64,000 nucleotides of DNA from an uncultured Oscillospiraceae bacterium (lineage in GTDB: Bacteria; Bacillota; Clostridia; Acetivibrionales; DTU013), in contig CAZEIH010000017.1 of assembly GCA_964512095.1 (NCBI GenBank), positions 267-64,266 on the forward strand, written 5' to 3'. The translations under genes and the position numbers were made by a program. The notes under the pieces were generated by a model. The model was not told the origin of the DNA. It did no database searches and saw only the letters and a program-made list of their open reading frames with translations. Position 1 is the stretch's first letter; the number at the start of each line of letters is the position of its first letter. Of the stretch, positions 16,355 through 60,645 are shown piece after piece.

Positions 16355-16439
16355 ACATTCCTCCGATAAAGCAATATGCTATATGCTGATAAGCTACACT
16401 TTTGGAAGGCTCACGTCAGAGCCTCACTATCAACTCAAC

Positions 16440-16955
16440 TCAGAACTGTAATATCGACTTAACCTCGTAGCCCTTAAGCCTATCCCTGCCATTCAAAAAT
16501 CCCAACTCAATAAAGAAAACCAAGCCTGCAACCTCGCCACCAAGCTTCTCGATAAGCTTGATATTGGACTCGGTGGTGCCTCCAGTAGCCAGTAAATCAT
16601 CTACGATAGCCACTCTCTGCCCCGGCTTGATGGCGTCCTCATGTATCTCCAATTCATCAGTACCATACTCTAGAGCATACTGAATTTTTACTGTCTTGTA
16701 GGGAAGCTTACCCTTCTTTCTTATAGGCACAAACCCTTTATTCATTGCATAAGCCAAAGGAGTTCCAAATATAAACCCTCTCGATTCAGGTCCTACTATC
16801 AAATCAAAGTCTCCCAGCTCCTCTAATAGGATTTTCATTTCATCAACACTCTGCCGCAATCCTTCCGGATCCTGTAAAACAGTAGTAATATCAATAAAAT
16901 CGACACCCTTTTTAGGAAAATCCGGTACGTGCCTGAGCTTTTTCTTAAAATCCAT
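16440..16955 (-). CDS. apt: adenine phosphoribosyltransferase
   Basis: 171 aa with the PRPP-binding motif [13 protein letters not shown]. Confidence 0.95.
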
Positions 16956-16973
16956 GTAAACTCCCTCCGGCCA

Positions 16974-21162: not shown

Positions 21163-21267
21163 TTATAAACACCTCTTCATCTACGTATTCATAAGACGCT
21201 GGCCTCACATTCCAGCAAGGCTTACAGCTGGCCTATGCAGCTAGGGCAAAAAACATCTATTTCCTCG

Positions 21268-21612: not shown

Positions 21613-21637
21613 AACAACAACCTTCCTTCCTGTATCT

Positions 21638-21836
21638 CACTGGCCTCTCATTCACTGGCCTCTCATTCACTGGCCCTTGATTTACTGGCCCTTGATTTAC
21701 TGGCCTCTCATTCACTGGCCCTCTAATACACTGGCCTCTCATTCACTGGCCCTTGATTTACTGGCCCTCTAATACACTGGCCTCTCATTCACTGGCCTCT
21801 ATTTCACTGGACCCTGATTGCTAACTGGCCTCATGC
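21638..21836. repeat. tandem array of about 13 units of 15-16 nt (core ACTGGCC)
   Basis: The units are ACTGGCC+TCTCATTC (A), ACTGGCC+CTTGATTT (B) and ACTGGCC+CTCTAATAC (C). The order is A A B B A C A B C A A' and then degenerate units. The array fills the alaS-HIT intergenic gap. Confidence 0.9.
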
Positions 21837-46284: not shown

Positions 46285-46923
46285 CTATACCAGCTGTATA
46301 GATTCCTTTGTACTTGATTTTAATCTGTAATGATACTCATTCATTTCTCGTCCCTCTTTTGTAATATAGGACTTGTTCAATTCAAAGTAGTTTTTAATAT
46401 AAAAAGCATTTACTGAATCATTATTGAGCTTATCTGTTTCAAGCTTTATATAACTGAATCCATTACCATCAACTGACTCTTTTAGTGCATTAATAAGCAA
46501 TGTGCCTATACCCTTGTTTTTTGTTTCGGGGAGCACACCGATAGAGGATAGCTCAATATATGCTTCATCCCTGCTACTATCTTTGGAATATGTAAATGCT
46601 CTTAATATCCTGAACATTACCCTCGGCTTTCTAAAAAATGCTAACACACTGTAAAATGCAAAGGGAAAAAGACTTCTCCTAATTAGGTACCTATAAAAAC
46701 CGCTAATGTCCCTTGAATAGGCCAAAAAGCCTACAAGTCTGCCCTTGTCAAATGCACCTATTACATTTGATTCCTTATGGCTTATATATCCTTTATATAA
46801 ATGCTTTAAAAATCCCCTGCCTAAAAAAGTGAGAAAAAAGCCAGGAAATGTTCTTATATGAATGTCAACAATATCATCTACATATTGGTTTGAGCCTAAA
46901 GCTTCAATTTTCACTACTAACAC
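46285..46923 (-). CDS. GNAT-family N-acetyltransferase
   Basis: Acetyl-CoA motif region PETKNKGIGTLLINAL. 212 aa. Confidence 0.75.
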   Translation of the reverse strand: MLVVKIEALGSNQYVDDIVDIHIRTFPGFFLTFLGRGFLKHLYKGYISHKESNVIGAFDKGRLVGFLAYSRDISGFYRYLIRRSLFPFAFYSVLAFFRKPRVMFRILRAFTYSKDSSRDEAYIELSSIGVLPETKNKGIGTLLINALKESVDGNGFSYIKLETDKLNNDSVNAFYIKNYFELNKSYITKEGREMNEYHYRLKSSTKESIQLV

Positions 46924-47818
46924 TCCTGGTTTTTACTACATCTGTATCTGCATCTGCATCCTTTTTAACTAGTGCATAAACTGTTCTAAGCATAGTCTTG
47001 ATATTACCCATAAATGAAAACCTCTCAATATCACCTAAATTGAACTTCATCTTATCTGGCAACACCAGATTCATATAAACCACATCAACATCAGCAGCAG
47101 CAGTAGCAGTAGCAGTAGCAGCAGCAGTAGCAGTAGCAGTAGCAGTAGCAGTAGTAGTAGCAGTAGCAGCAGCACCAGTAGCATCGCCAGTAGCATCACC
47201 AGTAGCACCAGTAGCACCAGTATCATCAACCTCATAAACCCCATCAAGATTATCAGCTACTTTGAGTATACTTTCCTCATCCTTGTACTCGATACTTGCA
47301 TTTGAGGTAACACCGGCTGGCAGCAGCAGAGTTGCCAGCATTTCATCGGTATACAGCTCTACATATTTGACAACCTCCGGGCGAGTACCTACAAAGCTCA
47401 TATCGCCTTTAATTATATTCAAAAGCTGGGGTATTTCGTCGAGACGATATTTTCTTAAGCTCCTGCCGATTCGGGTAATTCTCACATCGTCACTCCTTGT
47501 GACTTGTGAACCAATTTTCTCAGCATTTTTAACCATTGTTCTAAATTTGAATATAGTAAAATGTCTTCCATATTGGGTTACTCTTGTCTGCTTGAATAGT
47601 ACAGAGCCTTTAGAGTCCAACCTTATGATTATACTTAGTATTAAAAACACCGGCGACAGAAGTATCAGGAAAATAGCAGAGGTGACTATGTCAAATAACC
47701 TCTTAACGAATAAGCTTAGCTTTTTCTTTTCCAATATGTCATAGTACCTTCTGACCTCAGTATTCTTCATGAATTCAGGCAACTTATCCCATTGTCGTAG
47801 CATCACCTTTATCTGCAC
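46904..47818 (-). CDS. PglC/WbaP-C-type monotopic phosphoglycosyl (priming) transferase
   Basis: Bac_transf motifs: a re-entrant helix, FKFRTM and DEIPQLLNIIKGDMSFVGTRP. Carries a ~45-aa (Gly/Asp/Ala/Thr)n insertion. Confidence 0.85.
   Translation of the reverse strand: MQIKVMLRQWDKLPEFMKNTEVRRYYDILEKKKLSLFVKRLFDIVTSAIFLILLSPVFLILSIIIRLDSKGSVLFKQTRVTQYGRHFTIFKFRTMVKNAEKIGSQVTRSDDVRITRIGRSLRKYRLDEIPQLLNIIKGDMSFVGTRPEVVKYVELYTDEMLATLLLPAGVTSNASIEYKDEESILKVADNLDGVYEVDDTGATGATGDATGDATGAAATATTTATATATATAAATATATAAADVDVVYMNLVLPDKMKFNLGDIERFSFMGNIKTMLRTVYALVKKDADADTDVVKTRSVSSEN
47092..47222 (-). repeat. GCT/ACT tri/hexanucleotide coding repeat
   Basis: Minus strand (GCTACT)n, (GCT)n and GGTGMTACT units encode TGATGATGDATGDATGAAATATTTATATATATAAATATATAAA. 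Confidence 0.9.
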
Positions 47819-47841
47819 CTCTCAACTCAATAATTACTAGC

Positions 47842-49053
47842 TCAAAATGCCAAAATTCTTTTAAATGAGCTGCAAACATATTCCACATCATCATCACTGA
47901 GTAATGTATGCAGTGGGAGTGTAATCTCGTTTGCATACTGCTTATAAGCATTCGGATAATCCTTTATATCAAAACCCAGGTTTTTGTAAGCAGTCATCAT
48001 CGGAAGCGGCTTATAATGCACATTACACACGATGCCAGCCTGGGCCATTCTAGTAATAATGCTATTTCTTCTCTGCTCCCCTATCCATGGTAGGTTTGCT
48101 AGGTAAAGATGTCCCGAAGAAGTAAAATTTTCTCCCCTATGCTGCAAACTCACAACCCCTTTGGATAACAATGCTTCATCGTACATCTCTATAACAGCAT
48201 GTCTTCTTTGCATGAGCCCTTCGTATCTACTTAGTTGCATCAAGCCAAATCCCGCCAATATATCAGTCATATTGCACTTGTATGCCGGATATATAATGTC
48301 ATACTCCCATGCTCCTATTTGTGTCTTCGCCAGCGCATCCTTGGACTGCCCGTGAAGGCTCATGAGCATATACTGTTTGTATAACCATTCATCGTCAATC
48401 CCTATATCGCCACGCCAAAGTGCCGCTCCTCCCTCAGCTGTAGTCATGTTTTTTACAGCGTGAAAGGAAAAGCATGTGAAATCTGCAGCCAGACCACAAT
48501 TCACATTGTTTTGTACAGCACCAAAGGCATGTGCGGCATCAGCCATTACAACCACCCTGTCCAATTGCTTCTGAAGGCTATTGTTAGCTCTGAAAATACA
48601 TTTTTTACTCTCTACTGCATCATATATCGCATCATAATCACACATCTTGCCTGCTATATCAACAGGTATAATGACCTTTGTTTTCTCATTTATAGCATCA
48701 GCCAGTCTACTGTAATCCATTTCGAATGAACCCGGTGCAAGATCCACAAAGACTATTTTTGCGCCCACATGATCTATCACTGATGCTGATGCCGAATATG
48801 TATAGGGTGTTGTTATGACCTCATCCCCAGGGCCTATTCCGAGTATGCGTAGGGTGAGCTCCATTGCTGCCGTTGCTGAATTTAGGCAGACTGCTTTATT
48901 TGATCCTACAAACTCCGAAATCCTTTGCTCTAACAATTTAGTCCTAGGCCCGGTTGTAATCCAGCCTGATTTCATAGCCTTTATTACTCCCTCTATTTCT
49001 GCATCTGTTATGTCAGGTGGCGAAAAAGATATGCTCCTTATTTTACTATTCAT
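47842..49053 (-). CDS. DegT/DnrJ/EryC1-family sugar aminotransferase (PglE-like)
   Basis: 403 aa. PLP-lysine region SFHAVKNMTTAEGG and an N-terminal SFSPPDITDAEI. Confidence 0.85.
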   Translation of the reverse strand: MNSKIRSISFSPPDITDAEIEGVIKAMKSGWITTGPRTKLLEQRISEFVGSNKAVCLNSATAAMELTLRILGIGPGDEVITTPYTYSASASVIDHVGAKIVFVDLAPGSFEMDYSRLADAINEKTKVIIPVDIAGKMCDYDAIYDAVESKKCIFRANNSLQKQLDRVVVMADAAHAFGAVQNNVNCGLAADFTCFSFHAVKNMTTAEGGAALWRGDIGIDDEWLYKQYMLMSLHGQSKDALAKTQIGAWEYDIIYPAYKCNMTDILAGFGLMQLSRYEGLMQRRHAVIEMYDEALLSKGVVSLQHRGENFTSSGHLYLANLPWIGEQRRNSIITRMAQAGIVCNVHYKPLPMMTAYKNLGFDIKDYPNAYKQYANEITLPLHTLLSDDDVEYVCSSFKRILAF

Positions 49054-49077
49054 ACTATTCTAAATTTTCTCCTTAAA

Positions 49078-49154
49078 TCAATTCGCTTCGCTTAGGAAAT
49101 AACCATTCATTGCCAATCTATACAGATCAAAATCTTCTGAAGACATAGATAAAA
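49078..49154 (-). repeat. short (internally deleted) copy of the dispersed repeat
   Basis: Both termini are conserved (TCAATTCGCTTCGCTTAGG…TCTTCTGAAGACATAGATAAAA), but the central 12-bp hairpin is missing. Confidence 0.7.
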
Positions 49155-49249
49155 AGCAAAGCTTCGCTATCACATATGTCGTTGCGGGCTTTGGTATCCC
49201 TGCCCAGTGTCCATATGAGTCGGCGCCTTGCTTTTAACATTCTAAACCT

Positions 49250-49272
49250 CCGGCAGGCCGAAACACTGGCGG
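49250..49272 (-). promoter_or_regulatory. hairpin with conserved 9-nt loop (copy 2)
   Basis: Plus strand reads CCGGCAG-GCCGAAACA-CTGGCGG. The loop is identical to that of 59633-59655 while the stem sequence differs. Confidence 0.45.
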
Positions 49273-49526
49273 AAGTCATCGAAATTTGTATGCATAAGTT
49301 CATCTTGATTGGTTAATTATTGCCTCTTATGTCATTTTAATGATTATGGGGTTATTTGTCAATATGCTATTTGCATAACAATTGGTTCAAAATTATTATG
49401 AAGTTTAGTATTTAAGCAGTGACATAGATAAATTTTTTTATGAATGTGCAATAATAGGTATTCCTTTTGTTGGCAATATGTATTACAATATGTATGTGTA
49501 CAAATTTTGTAAACAGGAGTGGTAAA

Positions 49527-52010
49527 ATGTTTATTTATAAGAAATTATCCTTTATTTTAATTGCTGCATTGATTTTTTCTATATTAATCCCATTTCCTGC
49601 AACAGCAAAAGAGGCTGTAGATGTAACTGAAAAAATTCAGCTTTTAGGGAAGCCTGCTCAATCTCAGCCCTATGCTAGAAATATTTGGGACATGCAGGTC
49701 TTCAAGGGGAAGCTATACGTCTGCTGTGGCAACAGCAGCAATAATGCTCCCGCATCTAACGCAGGGCCAATTGATGTTCTTAGCTATGATTCCGTTAAAG
49801 GCATTAGTAAGGTTTATACAGTCAACGAAGAGCAGGTTGATATCTTCAGAGTCATCAACGAAGTTCTATACATTCCCGGACATGATTCAAAGGATTCCTG
49901 GGATTTTGGCAATTACTACATCTTAAGCGATAGCTGGAAGAAGGTTAGGACAATTCCACAGGGCGTCCATGTCTATGATATGGCTGGCTACAATGGAAAG
50001 CTATACGCTGCTACCGGCACCAATGGCTACAGTGAGGTGGTAGTCTCTAGCGATAACGGCCTTACCTGGAATAAAGCAGCCCCTGAGGATGGAACCATCT
50101 TTCACACCACAGGCTACAGAGCCTATACCATGTTTGAATTTAAAGATGTTTTGTATGCATCCAGCAAGTTTATGGGAGTATCAAGCAATTGCAATAACAT
50201 GCTAAAAATAACCAAAGAAGGTATTACTTCTATTAATGTAGAAGGTCTAAAAATGATGCCGGGGTTGCCATCGTCTACCATGTATGCCAGCTGTAAACTT
50301 ATCAGACCTGTTGAGTTCAAGGATAACTTGTTGTACATAGGCGCTGAGATACACAATGATCATCAATATATACCACTCGCTTTGTATGCTTCCAGCAATA
50401 TTGGAGATGCCAGGATAATAACCCTTCCTGAAAGCACTGCTCTGCCCTATGATATTATTACACGCGATTCCCTTATATACGTTCTCGCCAGTGTTAAAGT
50501 CTCTGACAGCTCTTTTAAAAACTTAGTGTATAAGAGCACTGATTTAAATACCTGGGAGCAGGTGCTTAGCTTTAACAGTAGTGCCTTTGCCCGATCCTTT
50601 GAAGAAATAAATGGTGATTTCTTCTTTGGACTTGGCTGTGACACGGCTTATATGCCTGAATCATCGGGTAATATATTGAAGGTAAGTAAGTCCGCATATG
50701 CACCTACTCAAGTAGTGCAAGCTGTGACCAAGCAGGAGCAGGAGCCTGCGCTTAAAACTCAGTCAGAAGCCAACTCTGGGACGAAGACGGAGGCTAAATC
50801 GGAAACCAAGACTAAATCTGAAACCACATCGGCAGCTAAGTCGGAAACCAAGGCAGAGACCAAATCTGAGACCACATCAGTAGCTAAGTCGGAGGCGAAG
50901 TCCGAGACTAAATCAGAAACCATGGCAGAGACCAAATCAGAAACCAAGGCCGAGACTAAATCTGAGGCCACATCGGTAGCTAAGTCAGAGGCGAAGTCCG
51001 ATACTAAATCAGAAACCATGGCTGAGACCAAATCAGAAACCAAGGCCGAGACTAAATCTGAGGCCACATCTGTTGCTAAGTCAGAGGCGAAGTCCGATAC
51101 TAAATCAGAGACCACATTGGTAGCTAAGTCGGAGGCGAAGTCCGATACTAAATCTATTGAAGAAACCGCGACGATTGGCACCACAGAAAACAATACGCAA
51201 GCTAATAACCCTACCTCATCAAAATCCTCGACTGAGGTCAGTAGAAGCAGCAGGCAGTCATTTGCTAACTCTTCTTCAATAAATGTAAGCAGCAAGCTTA
51301 TGTCAACCGGCATTCAGCTAACTAAGCCCATTACCGCCAATACATCAGAACTCCAGATATTCGGTAGTACCTTGTATCTTTTACAAGAAAACACCTCTGA
51401 GCCAAGTATCATTGGTATAGATCTTGCCAAAGGCGCATTGATTAGTAATGCTGCAGCTGATTCCACCTATAAAAAGAACCAATTAGCGAATAATAAATCT
51501 CATACAACCAAAGAAAATATGGAGTCCTTAAAATTAGCAGTTACGAACATGTTACCTGTTTTGTCGGTCTATAACTCTATAGACATATTCAAAGCTATAA
51601 AAACTGAAGGCTATGAAATATATATTCCAGCTAAGAAAACAATTAGAAAACGGGTCGCCTCCATCGGTTTATACGTTACATCCTTAGGAGGCTCTTCAGG
51701 AGACTCTTCAGGAGGTTCTTCACGCCGCATTAACTTCAACAGCTCTGATGCAAAGCCCTGTGACATAATTATCCGAGATTCCGATGTCTATGTGTTGGCA
51801 GTGGAGGAATACGAAGACAATACCTTCAGAAGCATTGTTTGTCAAAGTAGAGATTTAGTTAACTGGACAGAGCTATTTGTTTTTACCAATGAAGCACCTG
51901 CAGTATCATTTGAGGAACACAATGGTGATTTCTACTTCGTACTTAACTGCGATGAAAAAAATAAATCTGCGTCAAATAAACTAATGAAGGTTAGTAGAAA
52001 TGATTATTAA
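49527..52010 (+). CDS. secreted repeat protein with Asp-box (BNR-like) motifs
   Basis: AGGAG lies 7 nt before ATG 49527. Signal peptide MFIYKKLSFILIAALIFSILIPFPATA. One Asp-box SSDNGLTW, a central (KSETKAE…) repeat block, and a C-terminal ~85 aa that duplicates residues about 330-415. Confidence 0.7.
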   Translation: MFIYKKLSFILIAALIFSILIPFPATAKEAVDVTEKIQLLGKPAQSQPYARNIWDMQVFKGKLYVCCGNSSNNAPASNAGPIDVLSYDSVKGISKVYTVNEEQVDIFRVINEVLYIPGHDSKDSWDFGNYYILSDSWKKVRTIPQGVHVYDMAGYNGKLYAATGTNGYSEVVVSSDNGLTWNKAAPEDGTIFHTTGYRAYTMFEFKDVLYASSKFMGVSSNCNNMLKITKEGITSINVEGLKMMPGLPSSTMYASCKLIRPVEFKDNLLYIGAEIHNDHQYIPLALYASSNIGDARIITLPESTALPYDIITRDSLIYVLASVKVSDSSFKNLVYKSTDLNTWEQVLSFNSSAFARSFEEINGDFFFGLGCDTAYMPESSGNILKVSKSAYAPTQVVQAVTKQEQEPALKTQSEANSGTKTEAKSETKTKSETTSAAKSETKAETKSETTSVAKSEAKSETKSETMAETKSETKAETKSEATSVAKSEAKSDTKSETMAETKSETKAETKSEATSVAKSEAKSDTKSETTLVAKSEAKSDTKSIEETATIGTTENNTQANNPTSSKSSTEVSRSSRQSFANSSSINVSSKLMSTGIQLTKPITANTSELQIFGSTLYLLQENTSEPSIIGIDLAKGALISNAAADSTYKKNQLANNKSHTTKENMESLKLAVTNMLPVLSVYNSIDIFKAIKTEGYEIYIPAKKTIRKRVASIGLYVTSLGGSSGDSSGGSSRRINFNSSDAKPCDIIIRDSDVYVLAVEEYEDNTFRSIVCQSRDLVNWTELFVFTNEAPAVSFEEHNGDFYFVLNCDEKNKSASNKLMKVSRNDY
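50760..51155 (+). repeat. tandem coding repeat, 90-nt period (Lys/Ser/Glu/Thr/Ala-rich)
   Basis: The 30-aa unit SVAKSEAKS(E/D)TKSETMAETKSETKAETKSEAT is repeated nearly identically, with shorter 6-8-aa sub-repeats on both sides. Confidence 0.9.
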
Positions 52011-52465
52011 AATAAACGCCTAAGGCGGTAATACATCCTCATCACCATCTTTCTGACAGGTATAATTAGAAGCCATAATCCTACTAAACATCTTAAAAGC
52101 ATATTATTGCAATCAATAATATGCTTTCCCCTTCTTATCCTGGAAACAGTAGCAATCAACTGGTGAGATACAAGAGGCCCTTCTACCCACTGCTGCGCGT
52201 CACCTATTATATAAAAGCTACTCTCTTCCTTTTTCATTACTCTGTGCATTACATATTCGCCTGTCAATCGTTTAATTAGAACGATATCTCCCCTTTTCAC
52301 AGAATCGTAGGAATTGCTTGCAAGCTCTACACTGTCCTTACCTTCACGTAGAAATGGATACATACTCATCCCGGTTACCGTTATCCAGGCCTTTTCACCA
52401 TTATTCAGTATCTCAGCGACCAAACTAAACAGTTCTGCCGCCTTCACCTTTACAAGCTCATGCAT
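52007..52465 (-). CDS. S24/S26-type serine peptidase-like protein, C-terminal TM
   Basis: TGMSMYPFL (GxSMxP Ser box), GDIVLIKR (Lys box) and the hydrophobic tail LLRCLVGLWLLIIPV. Overlaps the upstream gene by 16 nt. Confidence 0.65.
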   Translation of the reverse strand: MHELVKVKAAELFSLVAEILNNGEKAWITVTGMSMYPFLREGKDSVELASNSYDSVKRGDIVLIKRLTGEYVMHRVMKKEESSFYIIGDAQQWVEGPLVSHQLIATVSRIRRGKHIIDCNNMLLRCLVGLWLLIIPVRKMVMRMYYRLRRLF

Positions 52466-53346
52466 TTATACACCAACTCCACAGCTTCATAGTCAGGGCG
52501 GCATTGTAGCAGATAAACGGGAACTGTTTCTACCAGCTTTTCAATGACCTTAATAGTTGCCTCCATTAATCCTCCATCAAAGTATGGGAGAAAGCACCGA
52601 GGCATCAACATTTCCAGCGCTCTGGCCATATCGAGTCTTTCAATCCTATTCTCAGATGACCGGGTCAGCATCACAACACCCTCCAATGGTACCTTCAAAT
52701 TAGCAAATATATCTGTTGAACCACTCCAGGGCGTACCACACAGCATCGGCTTGCCCTCAAGGAAACGAATAACCGGTCTATCGTCATTCAAAAGTGTAAC
52801 TCTGTCTCCGTACCTTTCCTTCCACAGCCCTGTATGTGTTGACTTGCCTGTACCTGAAGGAGCAGATACAATAACACCCTTACCGTCTATTGCAAATGAG
52901 GAGGAATGTACAGTAATGCTATCCATACTAATCATTGCGTTTCTGTATGCTATACCTGTGAGCTGAAATGTGTGGTAATCATTCCATTTGACACGTCTAT
53001 TATCACTTATGGGATAAGTCAAATCAGACTCTATGTATCTAATGGATATATTCCTCCAAAAATAATCTGCTTCAAGAATGGTGTCAAACTCCAGATTTCT
53101 TGTACTTGTCATAGCTATGAAAAAACCGTTGTCAGGAGCTTTTTTTCTATACCATCTTGATGTTTCATCAAGTATCAGATCACCATCAGGAATAACAATG
53201 TTATCCACCTTTTCCGATTTAACAATCAAATCGACAGCTGAAGCCGACGTATCCGATGCTTCCATTTTGAATATGGCTCCTCTTTCTTCAAACAGATCGT
53301 TGGATCCTATAAATTCGACAATAATACCAGCAATGTTGTAAAGCAA
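52450..53346 (-). CDS. HPr-kinase-C-terminal-domain-like P-loop protein
   Basis: VHSSSFAIDGKGVIVSAPSGTGKSTHTGLW resembles the HprK C-domain motif (H-A-S…G…G-x-S-G-x-GKS). TTG start at 53346, 9 nt after AGGAG. Confidence 0.65.
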   Translation of the reverse strand: MLYNIAGIIVEFIGSNDLFEERGAIFKMEASDTSASAVDLIVKSEKVDNIVIPDGDLILDETSRWYRKKAPDNGFFIAMTSTRNLEFDTILEADYFWRNISIRYIESDLTYPISDNRRVKWNDYHTFQLTGIAYRNAMISMDSITVHSSSFAIDGKGVIVSAPSGTGKSTHTGLWKERYGDRVTLLNDDRPVIRFLEGKPMLCGTPWSGSTDIFANLKVPLEGVVMLTRSSENRIERLDMARALEMLMPRCFLPYFDGGLMEATIKVIEKLVETVPVYLLQCRPDYEAVELVYKCMSL

Positions 53347-53427
53347 ATTTATTCACTCCTGACAATTACATAATATAATAGCTTAGAGAAATTCCCTTAT
53401 GCAGGCTGAGCCTTCCTTTTGGTTCAG

Positions 53428-53524
53428 TCAATTCGCATCGCTCAGGGAGTCAGGTGGAGACTGAACTCCGCTTGACCAAGGAAGTTAATTATTGAGTTCA
53501 GCGTCTCCTGAAGACATAGATAAA
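53428..53524 (-). repeat. full-length copy of the dispersed repeat (inverted relative to 57323 and 59445)
   Basis: TCAATTCGCATCGCTCAGGGAGTCAGGTGGAGACTGAACTCCGCTTGACC…CCTGAAGACATAGATAAA. About 85% identical to the reverse complement of 57323-57425. Confidence 0.85.
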
Positions 53525-53528
53525 GGGC

Positions 53529-53560
53529 AAAATAAAAGGGATTGTACAATTAACAACCCC
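53529..53560 (-). terminator. rho-independent terminator directly after the second precursor gene
   Basis: Minus RNA reads GGGGUUGU-UAAUUGU-ACAAUCCC-UUUUAUUUU. The G·U pair would be an A·C mismatch on the plus strand, so the orientation is minus. Confidence 0.7.
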
Positions 53561-53581
53561 CCATTAAAGACATACATAATA

Positions 53582-53710
53582 TTAGGAATTCAAACCTACC
53601 CAGGTATTATACTCTGCAGAGCAAGCCCCATCATAGTATGTACATGTACAAACTCTCTCATCTGCGCGTAGTTCTACACAGTTTATTTCGGGAGCAACAT
53701 ATTTTTTCAT
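53582..53710 (-). CDS. putative RiPP precursor peptide A2 (42 aa)
   Basis: Not in the ORF track. AGAGGTG lies 7 nt before the ATG. Sequence: MKKYVAPEINCVELRADERVCTCTYYDGACSAEYNTWVGLNS. Confidence 0.75.
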   Translation of the reverse strand: MKKYVAPEINCVELRADERVCTCTYYDGACSAEYNTWVGLNS

Positions 53711-53746
53711 TGTTTTTCACCTCTTTCCTCTTCAAGTTTGTATTTC

Positions 53747-53893
53747 TCACGAATCGCTAAGGGCTATAAGACCAACCATTGTGGGAATGTTTTGAACCTC
53801 CCATGTAGTACAACTTCCTGTGCAATTGCTGGCTATACGCTCCTCAACTCTTAGCTCTACACATGATAGTGTAGGTGTAACATATGCTTTCAT
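53747..53893 (-). CDS. putative RiPP precursor peptide A1 (48 aa)
   Basis: Not in the ORF track. AGGAGGG lies 7 nt before the ATG, 30 nt after the rSAM stop. Sequence: MKAYVTPTLSCVELRVEERIASNCTGSCTTWEVQNIPTMVGLIALSDS. Confidence 0.75.
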   Translation of the reverse strand: MKAYVTPTLSCVELRVEERIASNCTGSCTTWEVQNIPTMVGLIALSDS

Positions 53894-53923
53894 CTGGAAC
53901 CCTCCTTTCCATAATTTTTAAAA

Positions 53924-55051
53924 TCAATATTCTACATCCAGCTCCTTGCGGGCTTTTGCAGTCTCGCAAAGATATGGGGCTGGTTTAGTGAAGCTGCCTG
54001 TTTCAACCTTCAGTCTTGCAGGACAAGCCATGCATTTTGAGCGAAGGTCGCAATTATCACATTCCTTGCAGGAAGGTACATCCAGGCAGGATTTCTTTAG
54101 CAGTTCCCAAGATTTCGAAAATCCAAGACTCTTTACGTCGAACCAGGGATCTGTCAATAAGCCGCAAGGCGTCAATCTGCCATCCCAGGTCAACCAAAAG
54201 GCACCCTTCCCCGCCGTACATCTAAAGGCGGACGAAGCAGTCATATGCGGTATCTCTCCCACTAACTCATTAAGCTGGCCATCTGTCATAACATCATTAT
54301 TTACTGATAGCTCAGCCCTCTTCCTTGTTTCTTCCCGGTCCATGAGCTTTAATCTGAAGTCCTGAATCATTTTCTCATACCTTGCCAGCTCCAGAGGACC
54401 AAGCCTGCAGTTTTCAGGATCAGTGCCACAGCCCTCTCTCCTTGGCGCAACATAGTTGACTATGCCCAGTTGCCCTCCAAGACTGTCTGCTAAAGAATAT
54501 ATCTCCTCAAATTCACTACTATTTTCATCTATAACAGTGGTCTTTAGCTCTACCTTAATATTCTCAGCTAATAGCAGCTTTATTGCATTTACCGTATTGT
54601 GGAAGCCCTCCGGGTGTCCTGTGACTCTACCATAGGTCTCTGGACTTGCCCCATAAAGTGTAATGCTCACCTTTGATGGTGGCCTCTTCCCCAATCTGTG
54701 TGCCTTTTCAGCGTCTATGAGACCTCCGTTAGTATAGAGGGTAATACTCATTCCCATTTCTGAAAGAGCCTCGTATATCTCAAAGAAGTCCTTTCTCATG
54801 AATATCTCTCCACCGGTTAATGTCATAAAAATGAGCCCTGCATCTCTGGCCTGCCTTCCCAATGAAATCCACTGTGATGCTGTCAGCTCGTTTTCAAGGA
54901 ATGCTTTATCATCTGGCACACTGCATACGTAGCACATTTTGCAATGAAAGCTACATCTGGCTGTCAATTCAAAAAAACCTGATGCAGGATTCCCTACAAT
55001 AATTGACCTGTCAATTAAATTTTTGTATAATTGAGCCCATGACATACTCAT
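53924..55051 (-). CDS. radical SAM / SPASM-domain peptide-modifying enzyme
   Basis: CSFHCKMC (CxxxCxxC) near the N-terminus. The Cys-rich C-terminus is FRCTAGKGAF…TPCGLL…CLDVPSCKECDNCDLRSKCMACPA…YLCE. Overlaps the PqqD-like gene by 4 nt. Confidence 0.85.
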   Translation of the reverse strand: MSMSWAQLYKNLIDRSIIVGNPASGFFELTARCSFHCKMCYVCSVPDDKAFLENELTASQWISLGRQARDAGLIFMTLTGGEIFMRKDFFEIYEALSEMGMSITLYTNGGLIDAEKAHRLGKRPPSKVSITLYGASPETYGRVTGHPEGFHNTVNAIKLLLAENIKVELKTTVIDENSSEFEEIYSLADSLGGQLGIVNYVAPRREGCGTDPENCRLGPLELARYEKMIQDFRLKLMDREETRKRAELSVNNDVMTDGQLNELVGEIPHMTASSAFRCTAGKGAFWLTWDGRLTPCGLLTDPWFDVKSLGFSKSWELLKKSCLDVPSCKECDNCDLRSKCMACPARLKVETGSFTKPAPYLCETAKARKELDVEY

Positions 55052-55335
55052 TGTTGGTCCCCGCCATCTGCTGTTTCCAGTAGATTTTTCTGATGCAGTG
55101 TATCTAAAAACCTGATAACATCATTTTTTGCAGTTGCCTCGTCGATATCATATTCTTCAAGCAAAGCTGATACTAATTGCTGAGTGTTGGCATCACTTTC
55201 CATCAGGCGCCATAAAATCGCACCACTTTCACTTAGCGTCATTATTCCGTTGAATTCTACAACTCTTGCCCCCAATGGAACAACTACCCATTGCTTGGCA
55301 ATCTCCCGTAACATGAAACCGCTTTTGACCTTCAT
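55048..55335 (-). CDS. PqqD-family protein (RiPP recognition element)
   Basis: 95 aa. FMLREIAKQWVVVPLG…FNGIMTLSESGAILWRLM…LVSALLEEYDID…AKNDVIRFLDTL matches the PqqD-like winged-helix pattern. Confidence 0.8.
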   Translation of the reverse strand: MKVKSGFMLREIAKQWVVVPLGARVVEFNGIMTLSESGAILWRLMESDANTQQLVSALLEEYDIDEATAKNDVIRFLDTLHQKNLLETADGGDQQ

Positions 55336-55432
55336 CTACAAACCCCTTTATGATATGTTGTAATTTTATCTATTTAGTAGCCTTTTTATGTAATATTATA
55401 CAGTATCATCTTTTAAATGAATTTTCATGTCT

Positions 55433-55461
55433 ATATTATAATTATTTCATCTGTAAGTCAA
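55433..55461 (-). promoter_or_regulatory. candidate promoter for the pqqD-rSAM-precursor unit
   Basis: Minus strand reads TTGACT, a 17-nt spacer, then TAATAT (a TATAAT also occurs at 15 nt). It lies in a 222-nt AT-rich gap. Confidence 0.4.
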
Positions 55462-55557
55462 TACCAATTTTAATATTTCCAGTAATACTTTTGCTTTTAT
55501 TTTATTTTTTTACTTTTTATGTGGCATAGTCGCTTTTTTCATGGCACAATTACTTTA

Positions 55558-57255
55558 TTAGACAGTCAGTAATTTTCTATTCTCCCTTTCCGGTTCTAAA
55601 AACCCCTCCCTAAGTCTGAATACTTTACTACAGCTATTTAGGGCAGTCATTCTGTGAGTAATCATTATACAGGTTCGAGCATGGCCTATTCCCTGTATAC
55701 TTTGTAATACCTTCTCTTCCAGCTCTATATCAAGGGCTGAGGTAGCCTCGTCAAGTATTATAATCGGCGCCTTCCTAAGATAGGCCCTGGCTATTGCTAT
55801 TCTCTGGGCCTGGCCTTCAGAAAGCCCGTATGCTTTTTCTCCAATAACAGTGTTAATTCCATCTGGAAGCTTTTCGACAAATTCCAGCGCACAGGCTGCT
55901 TTTAATGCTTCCTTCATTTCACTCTCACTTGCCTCCTGCTCTCCTGTGCGCAGATTGTCAGCTATTGTTCCACTTAATAATGTATTTCCTTGAGGAACAT
56001 ACGAGAACCAGCTTCTTGTGGCACATGTAATTTCACTTTTTTCGTCCCTTTCATTGAAACAGTAGATACTTCCAGCATCAGGCTTTAAAAGAGCAAGCAT
56101 GAGGCGTATTATCGTTGTTTTACCTTCGCCGGAGCTTCCTATTATGGCTACTATTTCACCTGGCAACGCCTCCATTGAAATATTATTCAGTACAATTTCA
56201 TCATCTTCATAGCTAAAGCTGACATTTTCAAATTTAATCCCTACCGAGCCAGGAGTCTCCAGTAGCTCATCAGTTACCTCTGTATTCAGCCTCTCAAGCT
56301 CTATCAACCTGCCTGCAGATGCCAGTGCTGCAATAATCTGAGGCAGCATCCTTGAAAGACCCATAAAGGGAGCCTGAACCTGATTGACAAGCTGCAGGAA
56401 GGCGGTCATTGTACCGTAAGTCGCTGTCCCCCTGGCTACCTTCACTATACCCCAGCCAAAGGCTGACCCATAGCCAAGCCAGTATCCAATAGACATTATG
56501 GTGCTAGCCATTACTCCGGCTTTGCTTCGCTTTGTCACCAGCTCTAGCTTTTCCTTTTGCAGCTCTCCAATTTTCTTCTTGCTATTTTCTTCAAGATTAA
56601 AGGTCTTAATAACCAGAAGGTTCTGCAGGTATTCCTGCATTTGAGACCGGTAAGTACTTTCGGTTTCCTGTATCTGTATGTGCATTTTGCCAAGTCTTCT
56701 GCCATAAAATCTGCTCACAAGTATCGTAAATGGCGCAAGTACAAATGCAAGTATCGCTAAGCTCTTGTCATAAACCATAAGTGTCACAAATGCCGCCGTT
56801 AGCTGTACTCCTAAGGAAATGATCTGTGGCAGTACGCTAATTGAACCGTTTGTAACAGAATTAATGTCGCTTGTCAAACGGGTCAGAAGATCACCACTGT
56901 GATATCTTGAGACCTGGGCCCACTCAATGTTTATCAGCTTTGCAAAAATACCCTGCCGCATATCATTGGAGTACCTTTCATGAACTCTTGCTGTATACAC
57001 TGTAAGAAATGCACGGGAAATTTGCATAAATAAAATCACACTCACAAATAAAGCGATGTTAGGTCCAGCACTTTTTAATCCATCATAAATAGCACTGTCT
57101 ACGAGATTTTTTGACGCTACCGCCATTAAAACTGAGGCAATAGCAGCCAAAGATTCCACAGCTATTATGAGAATAAGGGCTCCCAGGTATGGCCTTATGC
57201 TTGCAGCTAACCATCTGATATTGGATAAACTCTTTATTACTTTCTTAATGTTCAT
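55558..57255 (-). CDS. ABC exporter, fused permease/ATPase (no C39 peptidase domain)
   Basis: 565 aa with 6 TM helices, Walker A GSSGEGKTT, signature LSEGQAQR and Walker B IIILDEATS. Confidence 0.9.
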   Translation of the reverse strand: MNIKKVIKSLSNIRWLAASIRPYLGALILIIAVESLAAIASVLMAVASKNLVDSAIYDGLKSAGPNIALFVSVILFMQISRAFLTVYTARVHERYSNDMRQGIFAKLINIEWAQVSRYHSGDLLTRLTSDINSVTNGSISVLPQIISLGVQLTAAFVTLMVYDKSLAILAFVLAPFTILVSRFYGRRLGKMHIQIQETESTYRSQMQEYLQNLLVIKTFNLEENSKKKIGELQKEKLELVTKRSKAGVMASTIMSIGYWLGYGSAFGWGIVKVARGTATYGTMTAFLQLVNQVQAPFMGLSRMLPQIIAALASAGRLIELERLNTEVTDELLETPGSVGIKFENVSFSYEDDEIVLNNISMEALPGEIVAIIGSSGEGKTTIIRLMLALLKPDAGSIYCFNERDEKSEITCATRSWFSYVPQGNTLLSGTIADNLRTGEQEASESEMKEALKAACALEFVEKLPDGINTVIGEKAYGLSEGQAQRIAIARAYLRKAPIIILDEATSALDIELEEKVLQSIQGIGHARTCIMITHRMTALNSCSKVFRLREGFLEPERENRKLLTV

Positions 57256-57322
57256 AAGTCATTCCTAACCAATACTAATCGACTCCTTATTGTTAACCTT
57301 TTTTCCTTATGACCAGTCTTTG

Positions 57323-57425
57323 ATTTTATCTATGTCTTCAGAAGACGTTGACCTCTGAATTAATTAACTTCCTTGGTCAGATGGAGTTCAGTCTCCACCT
57401 GACTCCCTGAGCGAAGTGAATTGAT
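57323..57425 (+). repeat. full-length copy of the dispersed ~103-nt repeat
   Basis: 97/103 identical to 59445-59547. Contains the GTCTTCAGAAGAC palindrome, TTAATTAA and the hairpin GGTCAGATGGAG-TTCAGT-CTCCACCTGAC. Confidence 0.9.
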
Positions 57426-59360
57426 ATGCCTTCTTGTTTTTATGAAACCTTTGTTCTCTTGTATTGCTTTGTATGATCTAGTTGCCTGTTCGCTTTCATA
57501 TAAATCCATATCCTGTATCTCAGGTATAAAATAATCCTTCGTGTATCTGTATGTCGGTACAAGCTTAGCCATGGTTTCTCTGAGCATTTCATCGTTCTCC
57601 ATGGAATTTTCCAACGCCTTAATACACATGATAACTTCTTGGAAGCTTATATCATGCTGTTTGCCGATAAATATCTTTTCATGGGCAGTTTTCTCCAGTC
57701 CCTCCTCTGCCATCAGTAGCTCCTCGTAGAGCTTCTCTCCAGGCCGCAAGCCTGAGTATTCTATCTTTATATCCACATACGGTTCAAAGCCTGACAGGCT
57801 AATAAGATCCCGGGCTAAATCTGCAATTTTAACAGGCTCGCCCATGTCAAGCACAAATACCTCACCGCCCTCCCCCAGCGCTCCTGCCTGAATCACCAGC
57901 TGAGCAGCCTCAGGTATGGTCATGAAGTAACGTATAATATCAGGGTGAGTGACTGTGACAGGGCCCCCCTGAATAATTTGCTTCTTGAATAGCGGTATGA
58001 CACTACCATTACTACCTAGAACATTACCAAAGCGGACAGCTGCGAATTTGGTTTCACTCATTCTATTCATGGATTGGACAATAATCTCAGCCAGACGCTT
58101 TGATGCGCCCATTATATTAGTAGGGTTTACTGCCTTGTCGGTAGACACAAGTATGAATTTCTTTGTTCCAAAGTCTATCGCCCGCCTACAGGTATTTAGC
58201 GTACCGAATACATTGTTCTTTATAGCTTCCGAAGGATTTCCCTCCATCAATGGCACATGCTTGTGGGCTGCCGCATGGAATACAACTCCCGGCCTATAGC
58301 GCTCAAATATCTCCCTGAGCCTTCCACGGTCCCTACAGGAGCCTATGAGGACTTCCAAGTCAAGCTTATCCTTGTACGTATAGACCAGCTCATTTTGTAA
58401 ATCGTAAGCGTTGTTTTCGTAAATATCAAATATAACCAGCTTTTTTGGCTCAAATTTAGCAATCTGCCTGCAAAGCTCTGAGCCTATGGATCCCCCACCG
58501 CCTGTCACTAACACTACTTCATCCTTGAGGTATCCGGATATTTCGTCCATATTGAGAGTAATCTCGTCACGTCCCAAAAGATCTTCTATATCTACATCCC
58601 TAAGCTGATTGGCTGTCAATTCCCCATCAATTATATCCATCATGTTGGGAAGTGTTTTTAGCTTGCATTTGGTATCCTTGCTTATCCTTAACAAATCAGC
58701 AACATCCCGCTTTGAAGCCGATGGTATGGCAACTACTATCTCATCTATTTTGTACTGCTTTGCTATCTCCCTGATTCTCTCTCTTCCTGATACCACCGGA
58801 ATATTATTAATACAGGTACCATGCTTTGTTATATCATCATCTACCACTACAACTGGTACCAGGTTCATATCGTTATGGTTTTTGAACTCCTTTATTAACA
58901 TAGAGCCTGCACTTCCAGCACCAACCATCATAACCCTGCTGGGCTTACGGTTGTTCCTTTGCAAATAAAGCCTTGCTCTGCGAAGATATCTGCATCCAAT
59001 CCTAACAGAACCAATAAGCATACATAAAAATATCCATGAAATTATGTGTATGGATATTGGGTATGTCCTTCCTGTCAACTGGCTTATTAGTAATCCAAGC
59101 CCTGTAGCTGTGATGGTTCCAACTGTAATCTGCATCATTTCCTCTATGCTTGCATATTCCCAAAGGCTTCTATAGAGTCCGAAAAAATAGAATACAACAA
59201 TTTGAACAATGCTAATCATCAGTGCATTTCTTAAGAAGTTATCAAAGTATTTCTGCGGTATGGCTATATCAAATTTTATGAGCAATGCAAGGCATAGTGA
59301 AATATTTACTATTAAAGCATCTGCTATGACAAGTACAATTTTTCTTAATTTAACTGACAT
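57360..59360 (-). CDS. PglF/CapD-type membrane-anchored UDP-sugar 4,6-dehydratase
   Basis: Four N-terminal TM helices, VLVTGGGGSIGSEL and FGNVLGSNGSVIP (Polysacc_synt_2). ATG 59360 follows GGGAGG. The last 22 codons lie inside the repeat. Confidence 0.85.
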   Translation of the reverse strand: MSVKLRKIVLVIADALIVNISLCLALLIKFDIAIPQKYFDNFLRNALMISIVQIVVFYFFGLYRSLWEYASIEEMMQITVGTITATGLGLLISQLTGRTYPISIHIISWIFLCMLIGSVRIGCRYLRRARLYLQRNNRKPSRVMMVGAGSAGSMLIKEFKNHNDMNLVPVVVVDDDITKHGTCINNIPVVSGRERIREIAKQYKIDEIVVAIPSASKRDVADLLRISKDTKCKLKTLPNMMDIIDGELTANQLRDVDIEDLLGRDEITLNMDEISGYLKDEVVLVTGGGGSIGSELCRQIAKFEPKKLVIFDIYENNAYDLQNELVYTYKDKLDLEVLIGSCRDRGRLREIFERYRPGVVFHAAAHKHVPLMEGNPSEAIKNNVFGTLNTCRRAIDFGTKKFILVSTDKAVNPTNIMGASKRLAEIIVQSMNRMSETKFAAVRFGNVLGSNGSVIPLFKKQIIQGGPVTVTHPDIIRYFMTIPEAAQLVIQAGALGEGGEVFVLDMGEPVKIADLARDLISLSGFEPYVDIKIEYSGLRPGEKLYEELLMAEEGLEKTAHEKIFIGKQHDISFQEVIMCIKALENSMENDEMLRETMAKLVPTYRYTKDYFIPEIQDMDLYESEQATRSYKAIQENKGFIKTRRHINSLRSGSQVETELHLTKEVN

Positions 59361-59444: not shown

Positions 59445-59547
59445 ATTTTATCTATGTCTTCAGAAGACGCCGACCTCTGAATTAATTAACTTCCTTGGTC
59501 AGGTGGAGTTCAGTCTCCACCTGACCTCCTGAGCGAAGCGAATTGAT
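59445..59547 (+). repeat. full-length copy of the dispersed ~103-nt repeat
   Basis: Contains a perfect 12-bp hairpin GGTCAGGTGGAG-TTCAGT-CTCCACCTGACC. It sits in the loaP-to-capD leader. Confidence 0.9.
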
Positions 59548-59632
59548 TTAGTCCAAAAAAGGCATGGTTTTACCAATTGTATATATATTGCTCCTATACA
59601 ATGGCATCACTAGCCTTTGACCTCCTACTCTC

Positions 59633-59655
59633 ATACCGGGCCGAAACACCGATAT
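59633..59655 (-). promoter_or_regulatory. hairpin with conserved 9-nt loop (copy 1) in the polysaccharide-operon leader
   Basis: Plus strand reads ATACCGG-GCCGAAACA-CCGATAT and can be extended to 11 bp. On minus-strand RNA the stem is fully paired with one G·U. Confidence 0.45.
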
Positions 59656-59732
59656 GGGACTTGGATTTTGTTTAAAGCCTTTACAACGATAGCCCCGGGT
59701 TATCGATAGATGTGAGTAATTCATCAGTCCTT

Positions 59733-60257
59733 CTATATTGGTTTCAGGATAGAAATCCCTAGATCTACTGTCCTTTCTTCTCCAAGGAAATCCAGCCGTA
59801 TCTTAGCTCTTTCTTTGCGATGGTCTATACTAATAATTACCCCTTCAAGGGAAAAGAGAGGACCGTCTACCACTTGAACTCTCCCATTCTCTATCAGCAC
59901 ATTCGAAAAACCAATTTCTTCGTTATTAGAAATCAAGCTGGACAATACAGCCATTTCTCGGCGGTCTATACTTGCCACTGAATTTCCTGTCTTTAGTAAT
60001 CTAATTACATTTGGTATGTTCTTTAAACCATAATACGTATCTGGAGTTATATCACCATTAATTAAAACATAGCCGGGAAACAAGACCCTTGTTTCTACCC
60101 TCCATATGCCGCCCTTCCTGACCCGCAGCTTTCTTTTGGGTACCACTACGGTATAGTCATCACCCAATCTATACCTGACTCTCTCCTTTGCCCTCTCCTC
60201 TTCACCTGTAACAACAAACACACCATGCCATTCATCTAATCGTGAATCATACAACAT
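59733..60257 (-). CDS. loaP: NusG-paralogue transcription antiterminator (LoaP-like)
   Basis: 174 aa. NGN-like N-terminus (WHGVFVVTGEEERAKERV…LFPGYVLI) and a KOW-like C-terminus (VQVVDGPLFSLEGVIISIDHRKERAKIRL). It is the first gene of a polysaccharide locus. Confidence 0.7.
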   Translation of the reverse strand: MLYDSRLDEWHGVFVVTGEEERAKERVRYRLGDDYTVVVPKRKLRVRKGGIWRVETRVLFPGYVLINGDITPDTYYGLKNIPNVIRLLKTGNSVASIDRREMAVLSSLISNNEEIGFSNVLIENGRVQVVDGPLFSLEGVIISIDHRKERAKIRLDFLGEERTVDLGISILKPI

Positions 60258-60410: not shown

Positions 60411-60645
60411 GGGAGACGGTTCGGTTCGGGGACGGTTCTCACCTTTGGAGACGGTTCCCACCTTTGGGGACAGTTCGTTCGGGGCCAGTTCGTTCGGGGC
60501 CAGTTCGTTCGGGGACAGTTCTCACCTTTGGGACAGTTCGGTTCGGGGACGGTTCTCACCTTTGGGACGGTTCGGCTCGGGGACGGTTCGTTCGGGGACA
60601 GTTCTCACCTTTGGGGACAGTTCGTTCGGGGACGATTCTCACTTT
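60411..60645. repeat. tandem array of 14 units of two types (15 nt and 19 nt)
   Basis: 8 units are GGGGAC(A/G)GTTCGTTC-like and 6 are GGGGAC(A/G)GTTCTCACCTTT-like, and the two types are interleaved. The last unit overlaps the stop codon of the AI-2E transporter gene. Confidence 0.9.

Follow-up and report, generated by a model that had tools for sequence, protein, structure and literature searches.

A Peptide-Maturation Cassette between capD and Its Sugar-Pathway Partners as a Probable Conserved Module of Clostridial Surface-Polysaccharide Loci

Introduction

In a 64,000-nucleotide (nt) stretch of DNA from an uncultured Oscillospiraceae bacterium (contig CAZEIH010000017.1 of assembly GCA_964512095.1; hereafter, the window), the genes of a surface-polysaccharide pathway are split by genes of another kind. 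capD, which encodes a PglF-like membrane 4,6-dehydratase (57360-59360, minus strand; PF02719, 1.6e-123), lies apart from the genes for a DegT aminotransferase (47842-49053), a Bac_transf phosphoglycosyl transferase (46904-47818) and a GNAT protein (46285-46923), all three on the minus strand. The 8.3 kb between them, here termed the block, hold a peptide-maturation cassette and a convergent gene for a secreted beta-propeller protein. How did the block come to lie there? An initial annotation, made from the sequence alone, correctly placed the four sugar-pathway genes and read the block as an insertion into a polysaccharide operon, bounded by copies of a dispersed repeat. Comparison with related loci leads us to a different answer: the block is probably a conserved accessory module of clostridial surface-polysaccharide loci, inherited vertically at this position and neither delivered nor bounded by the repeat.

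The cassette is uncharacterised. Its kinase-like protein has ~1100 homologs, and it was embedded in polysaccharide clusters in every locus that we sampled. In place of a repeat-bounded island, the window appears to hold a two-unit regulon of the antiterminator LoaP, in which a second RNA hairpin compensates for the convergent gene. The locus is relevant to RiPPs (peptides that are ribosomally synthesized and then post-translationally modified), to capsule and exopolysaccharide loci and to processive antitermination, as a system where LoaP may govern a polysaccharide and a peptide together. Within the literature that was searchable, we obtained no paper linking such a cassette to polysaccharide loci, and none relevant on SynChlorMet (SCM) or on LoaP with radical S-adenosylmethionine (SAM) enzymes and polysaccharides.

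Conservation of the Block in Related Loci

Scans for capD in genome and metagenome collections gave seven loci each. Three metagenome contigs of the same species (L001-L003) have the layout of the window. Exactly the window's order was also found in L019/L020 (capD 71% and LoaP 69% identical to the window's) and in L022 (capD 65% identical), all without the dispersed repeat: LoaP, a hairpin, capD, an ABC exporter, a PqqD-type chaperone, a radical SAM enzyme, two precursor peptides, a ScmC-like protein, an S24-like peptidase, one or more propeller homologs on the opposite strand, a second TGTTTCGGC hairpin and the sugar genes. L019/L020 have a convergent propeller homolog (57% and 51% identical) and Bac_transf after the second hairpin, and L022 has two propeller homologs and also carries TraX on the opposite strand; the propeller homologs of L019 and L022 are 50-57% identical.

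These loci bear directly on the idea that capD and DegT once belonged to an uninterrupted operon, into which the block was secondarily inserted, delivered by or recombined at the bracketing repeats. Repeat copies do lie at both ends of the block, and the similarity of capD to all relatives stops exactly where one of them (copy B) begins. Moreover, in four loci with a capD 75% identical to the window's (L011-L013 and L015), genes for a DegT-type aminotransferase and Bac_transf come immediately after capD, with no cassette, so alignment to relatives bears out the view of the block as a discrete module, one that may be missing. However, additional repeat copies lie outside and inside the block, no terminal inverted repeat (TIR), target-site duplication (TSD), transposase or integrase was found, the composition of the block is that of its flanks, and its tree is congruent with that of the flanks (see below). 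Since the block occupies the same place in L019 and L022, where the repeat is missing, the insertion reading is largely refuted and we regard it as very improbable. The absence of the cassette from L011-L013 and L015 is read as loss.

Other arrangements were found as well. At the site that the block occupies in the window, L019 and L022, a paralogous cassette takes its place in L004, L005, L016, L018 and L021. In L004 and L005 (capD 82% identical), capD is followed by PqqD, radical SAM, two precursor, ScmC-like, S24-like, ABC and sugar genes, all co-directional and with one hairpin. L016 (capD 89% identical over its last 79 amino acids [aa]) has the same order, with only 30 nt between the ABC gene and a DegT gene whose product is 74% identical to that of the window; its orthologs of the DegT, Bac_transf and GNAT segment, which are 58-74% identical, sit directly after a cassette. 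L018 and L021 (capD 83-84%) carry two cassettes, one between an AI-2E gene and LoaP and one after capD. The upstream cassette is of the window's type (61-72% identical) and is without an ABC gene. L027 holds the window's cassette together with a convergent propeller gene in another polysaccharide locus. Two paralogous cassettes within one polysaccharide locus were seen in L018, L021, L027 and L028. Finally, L010 (capD 69%) has an inverted cassette three genes downstream of capD. At 16360-18549, this locus encodes PqqD, a 75-aa Trp/Pro-rich precursor, ScmC-like, S24-like and ABC proteins but has no radical SAM gene; therefore, the radical SAM enzyme may not be an invariant core of the system.

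Descent and Composition of the Cassette

In a neighbor-joining (NJ) tree of PqqD, radical SAM, ScmC-like and S24-like proteins, the cassettes formed two clades. The window grouped with the upstream cassettes of L018 and L021 (91% bootstrap), then with L019 (90%), and then with L022 and the downstream cassette of L018; the other clade comprised L004, L005, L016 and the downstream cassette of L021 (100%). In the LoaP and capD tree, the window grouped with L004, L005, L018 and L021 (100%), with L012, L019, L010 and L022 outside. The cassette tree is congruent with the LoaP and capD tree, which points to vertical inheritance. Since L019 and L022, which are outgroups by flank, likewise have an ABC-first cassette with a convergent propeller, it is simpler to take the window's layout as ancestral and the L004-type layout as derived. 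On this simplest reading, an old arrangement persists in the window and its closer relatives have rearranged or exchanged their cassettes.

Could the exchange have taken place in the window's own lineage? Under such a xenologous replacement, an L004/L016-type cassette would have been swapped for a window/L019-type cassette plus propeller, with crossovers perhaps at the 3' end of capD and in the region upstream of DegT, where the repeats may mark or have followed the junctions. Several observations are as this would predict. The cassette proteins of L004, L005 and L016 share 61-91% identity among themselves but only 36-60% with those of the window, whereas the flanks are 82-89% identical; the ABC gene is first in the window and last in those three loci; and the loci with two cassette types (L018, L021, L027 and L028) show that cassettes move and are exchanged. 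A sliding-window identity scan found no recombination breakpoint within LoaP or capD, and similarity to close relatives holds up to the 3' end of capD, in keeping with a junction there. On the other hand, the window's cassette clusters at 91% bootstrap with those of L018 and L021, the closest relatives by flank, and not with a distant donor, it shows no compositional difference, and it shares the ABC-first order and the convergent propeller with L019 and L022. Replacement is, in our judgment, quite unlikely.

A number of points nevertheless weigh against an old, vertically inherited module under LoaP control. The loci without a cassette (L011-L013 and L015) could represent the primitive state. 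The nearest relatives by flank, L004, L005, L016 and L021 (capD 82-89%), have a different cassette type after capD, 36-60% identical and with ABC last, while L018, equally close by flank, keeps an ABC-first cassette there that is 42-65% identical to the window's; furthermore, the window-type cassette of L018 and L021 sits upstream of LoaP. Rearrangement or exchange at the cassette site clearly occurred in this clade, and the case for the window's arrangement as ancestral is thus one of parsimony; both trees were built by simple NJ from few taxa. With respect to regulation, promoter-like sites in the ABC-PqqD gap (55405-55527) could drive the cassette without LoaP, and no clear terminator follows the second hairpin of the window, only a weak, small hairpin with a U-rich tail.

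The composition of the block gives no sign of foreign origin. Its genes have a GC content of 0.40-0.45, and of 0.385-0.44 at third codon positions, compared to 0.415 and 0.424 for capD and 0.41 and 0.37 for LoaP, and their codon usage equals that of capD and LoaP. In tetranucleotide distance from the window mean, the block ranked 17th among 56 equal-sized segments (rank 1 being the most typical). With GC, third-position GC, codon usage and tetranucleotides all matching the flanks, and the cassette grouping with the nearest flank relatives (91% bootstrap), the suggestion of a recent or foreign block was not upheld. The real compositional outlier of the window is the Wzx/Wzy glycan region at ~29-47 kb, where gene GC falls to 0.29. 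Proteins of this region are 24-45% identical to their equivalents in close relatives, as expected for an exchangeable, serotype-like region.

Distribution of the Dispersed Repeat

The repeat that brackets the block is ~103 nt long and contains a 12-bp GC-rich hairpin and a GTCTTCTGAAGAC palindrome. In forward orientation, the predicted hairpin is of 11-12 bp (z = -2.4 to -2.9 vs. shuffled sequence). Four copies carry both end motifs, each of which had 4-5 matches vs. 0 expected. Copies A and B are forward, on the minus strand: A (59445-59547) lies between the leader terminator and capD, outside the block, and B (57323-57425), 94% identical to A, spans the 3' end of capD and the capD-ABC spacer. 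Copies C and D are inverted relative to these, on the plus strand: C (53417-53531) lies inside the block and D (49074-49154), which is without the central hairpin, just upstream of DegT. A partial copy of 35 nt was found at 14075-14109. The description of the block as bracketed by repeats stands as far as copies B and D are concerned; however, copies A and C, outside and inside the block, show that the repeat is not specific to its ends.

Copy A is an insertion relative to the leaders of L004 and L005, and copy B supplies the last ~22 codons of capD, the 3' end of which diverges from all relatives where the copy begins. No TIR or TSD was apparent when the copies were aligned with their flanks, and no Pfam or NCBIfam match to a transposase, integrase or recombinase was obtained for any block protein. 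The repeat was absent from all relative loci of other species compared, being present only in the window and the same-species contigs L001-L003, and it had no match in Rfam. Given four copies without TIR or TSD, confinement to one species and the same architecture without the repeat in L019 and L022, the role of insertion termini that had been assigned to these copies is not tenable, and we regard the repeat as a small intergenic element, lineage-specific and late, which came to occupy four spacers of this regulon. Taken together, relatives with the block at the same position, a composition indistinguishable from that of the flanks and an independent promoter on one side (see below) run counter to insertion.

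Short copies of only the 3' end of the repeat (GAGGTCAGAGCCTTCTGAAGACATAGATGAA) occur at 14075-14109 and 21176-21207, 15-45 nt upstream of minus-strand start codons, which suggests that this segment could itself be a functional intercistronic motif.

LoaP, RNA Hairpins and Two Putative Transcription Units

LoaP of Bacillus velezensis requires a UNCG hairpin, to which it binds, counteracts NusA-dependent termination and acts on two hairpin-bearing operons (PMC12691694). The window encodes a LoaP, a NusG-paralog antiterminator, at 59733-60257 on the minus strand (NCBIfam NF033641 antiterm_LoaP, 176.2 bits vs. a cutoff of 125), which is 82-84% identical to its orthologs in L004, L005, L018 and L021. 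The 9-mer TGTTTCGGC occurs exactly twice in the window, both times on the minus strand, vs. 0.19 occurrences expected. One occurrence (59640-59648) is in a LoaP-type hairpin of the leader upstream of capD (leader 1; 59623-59665, minus strand) and the other (49257-49265) is in a similar hairpin upstream of DegT (leader 2; 49245-49277, minus strand). The recurrence of the leader hairpin near the exit of the block, already seen in the initial annotation, was thereby confirmed: both sites are predicted to form stem-loops in which U-G and G-C pairs close a UUCG loop and one U is bulged.

The leader-1 hairpin loop recurs, with covarying stems, in L004, L005, L012, L018, L019, L021 and L022, and second hairpins are present in the equivalent region of L019 (14349) and L022 (15098). 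Among 11 hairpins from eight loci, the loop was invariant and 87.9% of cells were paired, compared to 29-49% when the 3' partners were slid; 8 of 12 pairs had changed on both sides, and none of 500 shuffles was as high. No convincing candidate for a LoaP-type hairpin was found in L010 or L023-L025. The hairpins, the repeat and the tandem arrays of the window were unmatched in Rfam, both at gathering thresholds over the whole window and at E <= 1 over the two leaders, the sole match being a chance one to a snoRNA. We also considered whether hairpin 2 had arisen by recent duplication of leader 1, with the repeat as its carrier, but dropped this since the stems differ and the second hairpins of L019 and L022 occur without the repeat.

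Other signals fit around these hairpins. In leader 1, the hairpin is followed by a terminator-like long stem and U6 (59555-59618, minus strand), a predicted fold that is conserved in the leaders of L004 and L005. The ABC gene begins at 57255, 104 nt after the capD stop, and scans of this gap found no promoter-like site and no terminator, in agreement with the observation that the ABC gene has no obvious promoter of its own. Directly 3' of the precursor genes, a terminator-like hairpin with a T-run (53536-53562, minus strand) was found by scanning, and a comparable hairpin and T-run follow the precursors of L004. Upstream of leader 2 is a sigma-70-like promoter, P2 (49334-49362, minus strand; TTGACA-17-TAAAAT, 11/12), the best minus-strand promoter match in the region, with hairpin 2 lying ~60-90 nt downstream of its -10 element. 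L019 has a promoter (TTGACT-17-TAAAAT) upstream of its second hairpin, in the same order as the window. No terminator was detected by scanning in leader 2 of either the window or L019. The propeller and S24-like genes, which converge, overlap tail-to-tail by 4 nt at their stops (52007-52010), leaving no space for a terminator between them; the 4-nt stop overlap is also kept in L019 (11364-11367).

By analogy with B. velezensis, we infer two LoaP-dependent units here, one comprising loaP, capD and the cassette and the other running from P2 through DegT and the Wzx/Wzy genes. Transcription would start upstream of loaP, LoaP would bind the UUCG hairpin of leader 1, and RNA polymerase would then pass the leader terminator, capD, the ABC, PqqD and radical SAM genes and the terminator-like hairpin after the precursors. 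Since the propeller gene is read in the opposite direction, the glycan genes, from DegT onwards, would restart from P2, and the second LoaP hairpin would make them a second LoaP-dependent unit. Because hairpin 2 sits after a strong promoter, this is probably the case. Co-transcription of the promoter-proximal part of the block with the LoaP-headed unit, as proposed in the initial annotation, is plausible from the sequence, with a UUCG hairpin and terminator-like stem in the leader and neither terminator nor promoter in the capD-ABC gap. The notion that the downstream sugar genes were simply cut off is contradicted by their own strong promoter and second LoaP hairpin, the latter also being present in L019 and L022.

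The likeness to the dfn and mln operons of B. velezensis (PMC12691694) extends from the LoaP-family NusG paralog to the small UNCG hairpin of the 5' leader, after which leader 1 has a terminator-like stem, and to the use of one LoaP for two transcription units with near-identical hairpins, which is proposed here from sequence. Differences are also evident. The targets in B. velezensis are polyketide synthases, whereas here they would be a Wzx/Wzy polysaccharide operon and a peptide-maturation cassette. In addition, both hairpins lie in a single locus in the window, the second restarting the array after a convergent gene, and hairpin 2 is without a clear terminator after it.

Proteins of the Block

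The cassette genes are all on the minus strand. First after capD is the ABC exporter (55558-57255; PF00664 and PF00005), a half-transporter without a peptidase domain that is 62-66% identical to the products of ABC genes directly after capD in L018, L019 and L022. It is followed by the PqqD-type peptide chaperone (55048-55335; PF05402, 5.7e-18), a RiPP recognition element (RRE), and by the radical SAM/SPASM-type peptide maturase (53924-55051; PF04055, 3.5e-19). The latter has a CSFHCKMC motif, in agreement with CxxxCxxC, and a C-terminal Cys cluster, CKECDNCDLRSKCMAC. It aligned over its full length to AhbD, NirJ2 and the radical SAM/SPASM family TIGR04053, all under the equivalog cutoffs, and had no match to the Pfam SPASM model.

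Next are the genes for two precursor peptides, A (53747-53893; 48 aa, MKAYVTPTLSCVELRVEERIASNCTGSC...LSDS) and B (53582-53710; 42 aa, MKKYVAPEINCVELRADERVCTCTYYDGAC...GLNS), which were recognized by sequence and belong to no Pfam or NCBIfam family. Small genes are present at the precursor position in each cassette locus (at least 12 loci). A comparison of 20 related precursors from nine loci showed a common leader, MKxY[VI]xP....[DE]LRxEER[IV], and variable Cys-rich cores. All ten precursors of the window's clade end in Ser, while peptides of the other cassette clade mostly do not.

The kinase-like protein (52450-53346; 298 aa) is assigned to the ScmC family (PF27840), with a PEPCK/HprK fold, by its P-loop, structural model and homologs. 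It had no Pfam-A match and a PDB sequence search was empty, but it contains an invariant APSGTGKST P-loop, and its AlphaFold model (pLDDT 93.7) matched PEPCK (2e-7) and HprK/P (3e-5) in Foldseek. We detected 1123 homologs; the precomputed annotation of the collection is PF27840 (ScmC) for these as for the protein itself, and there were weak sequence matches to the ScmC and HprK-related-kinase-A models. An S24/S26-like protein (52007-52465; PF00717, 3.3e-5), a candidate leader peptidase, completes the cassette; it matched TIGR02228 signal peptidase I at 6.9e-10, under the cutoff, and the S24-like gene always followed the ScmC-like gene in the sampled loci.

The secreted beta-propeller protein is encoded convergently, on the plus strand (49527-52010), as judged from its translation, model and homologs. 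As the initial annotation had it, this is a single internal plus-strand gene: it starts at an ATG preceding a signal peptide and is the sole long plus-strand open reading frame (ORF) outside minus-strand ORFs and low-complexity stretches. The protein has Asp-box-like motifs, a KSET-rich repeat linker and a partly duplicated C-terminal domain. Its N-terminal domain was modeled by AlphaFold at a pLDDT of 92.5 with generic matches only (kelch, GH74 and sortilin), and a PDB sequence search gave matches through the low-complexity linker only. The family has 232 detectable homologs, and members lie beside the cassette in L019, L022, L026 and L027. The linker (50758-51162) is made up of 12/48/96-nt tandem repeats and measures 139 aa in the window and L002 and 107 aa in L001.

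From these predicted activities, the cassette would yield exported peptides that are probably cross-linked by the radical SAM enzyme and possibly phosphorylated, made together with the polysaccharide. PADLOC returned generic radical-SAM core and ABC ATPase matches only and thus gave no defence-system reading.

The cassette resembles three known kinds of system. With SCM/HPr-rel-A (TIGR04249-04251, TIGR04352/04353; PF27840 ScmC), it shares a PqqD-type chaperone, radical SAM/SPASM enzyme(s) and a ScmC/HprK-related P-loop protein. However, scores were far below the equivalog cutoffs (ScmC, 18.3 vs. 125 bits; ScmE, 77.1, and ScmF, 74.7, vs. 400), and the S24/S26-like peptidase, ABC exporter and partner propeller are additions here, as is the tie to polysaccharide loci; the cassette is related to the SCM system but is not a member of it. 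With sactipeptide and ranthipeptide clusters (AlbA, SkfB and StsB), it has in common a radical SAM/SPASM enzyme with an RRE, small Cys-rich precursors with a conserved leader and a dedicated exporter. Unlike these, it has a separate PqqD RRE, its NCBIfam scores to AlbA, SkfB and StsB are far under the cutoffs, and neither the additional kinase-like protein nor the polysaccharide-locus context is typical of those clusters.

The third likeness is to the lasso peptides paeninodin and pseudomycoidin. HPr-kinase homologs phosphorylate the C-terminal Ser of lasso-peptide precursors, and in pseudomycoidin a nucleotidyltransferase then adds hexoses (PMC8498205). These systems (PMC8498205) have a PqqD-type RRE, an HPr-kinase homolog and an ABC exporter, as does the cassette; the C-terminal Ser of the window-clade precursors (10/10) is the residue that lasso kinases phosphorylate, a role that the kinase-like protein may have here; and a nucleotidyltransferase gene (PF14907) lies beside many related cassettes. 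In contrast to lasso clusters, the block has radical SAM/SPASM chemistry and Cys-rich precursors, and a final Ser is mostly absent from the peptides of the other cassette clade. A lasso cluster as such was ruled out, since no lasso cyclase (C) or B2 protease domain is encoded in the block. The lasso-kinase parallel is a lead for the chemistry of the cassette, not a demonstration.

Association of the Cassette with Polysaccharide Loci

None of the proteins encoded in the block has a glycan Pfam domain, and the initial annotation had noted an absence of glycan-related genes there; by its context in other loci, however, the module is not unrelated to glycans. Homologs of the kinase-like protein led to nine loci spanning several clostridial families: L018, L019, L021, L022, L023 (Ruminiclostridium hungatei), L024, L025 (a Syntrophomonas metagenome-assembled genome), L028 and L029 (R. 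sufflavum). All nine are polysaccharide loci, as indicated by Wzy, Wzz/tyrosine kinase, glycosyltransferase, Bac_transf, CpsB or flippase genes. Both loci reached through propeller homologs (L026 and L027) likewise hold cassettes within polysaccharide clusters, and in L027 the propeller gene is convergent with the S24-like gene. In addition, a PF14907 (NTP_transf_5) nucleotidyltransferase gene adjoins the cassette in L023, L024, L025, L027, L028 and L029 and is close by in L010 and L026; none was present among the window genes scanned.

This association could be incidental if the cassette were a self-contained bacteriocin-type cluster that landed in recombination-prone polysaccharide loci, transcribed from a promoter of its own and linked neither functionally nor in regulation to LoaP or the glycan. 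The promoter-like sites between ABC and PqqD, the terminator-like hairpin that follows the precursors and the placement of the L018/L021 cassette upstream of LoaP, beyond the reach of the hairpin, would all suit such a cluster, as would the hypervariable precursor cores, which are as in antimicrobial peptides. However, all nine independently sampled cassettes are in polysaccharide loci, often co-directional with the sugar genes and tens of nt from them (30 nt between ABC and DegT in L016), NTP_transf_5 and propeller genes recur beside the cassette, and no promoter-like site lies between capD and ABC in the window. We consider an independent bacteriocin-type cluster unlikely.

A more specific proposal, which we offer tentatively as one possibility, is that the cassette (PqqD, radical SAM/SPASM, HprK-fold kinase-like, S24/S26-like and ABC proteins, frequently with PF14907 and a propeller partner) is a functional part of polysaccharide production and no mere bacteriocin cluster that hitch-hikes. 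Its product might be a peptide, cross-linked, phosphorylated and perhaps also glycosylated, by which the surface polysaccharide is primed, anchored or capped or which signals for it, with LoaP co-regulating the two through the two hairpin leaders. If so, Gram-positive anaerobes would have a new class of modified peptides, one associated with polysaccharide loci.

Other Features of the Window

The DegT, Bac_transf and GNAT genes (46285-49053) form the head of the downstream Wzx/Wzy polysaccharide operon. The Bac_transf gene contains an (AGCAGT)n-type tandem repeat (47069-47239), as a result of which the catalytic domain (residues 39-186 of 304) is followed by a low-complexity stretch. A GC-rich 9/12-nt tandem repeat (CCACCGCCACCG...) at 9778-9998 encodes a low-complexity segment within a 1401-aa ORF (8727-12932). 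Between a 947-aa gene and a small HIT-like ORF, an array at 21629-21829 repeats a 15-16-nt unit 11 times (GGCCAGTGAATGAGA as read on the minus strand), a motif seen only in the window among the loci checked. Lastly, an array of ~10 units of ~15 nt with a GGGGACRGTTC core lies between the AI-2E transporter gene and the loaP promoter (60413-60653; also 63737-63768). L018 and L021 carry their window-type cassette where the window has the 60413-60653 array, and the GGGGACRGTTC motif recurs at intergenic sites of related loci, including the upstream regions of L004 and L005.

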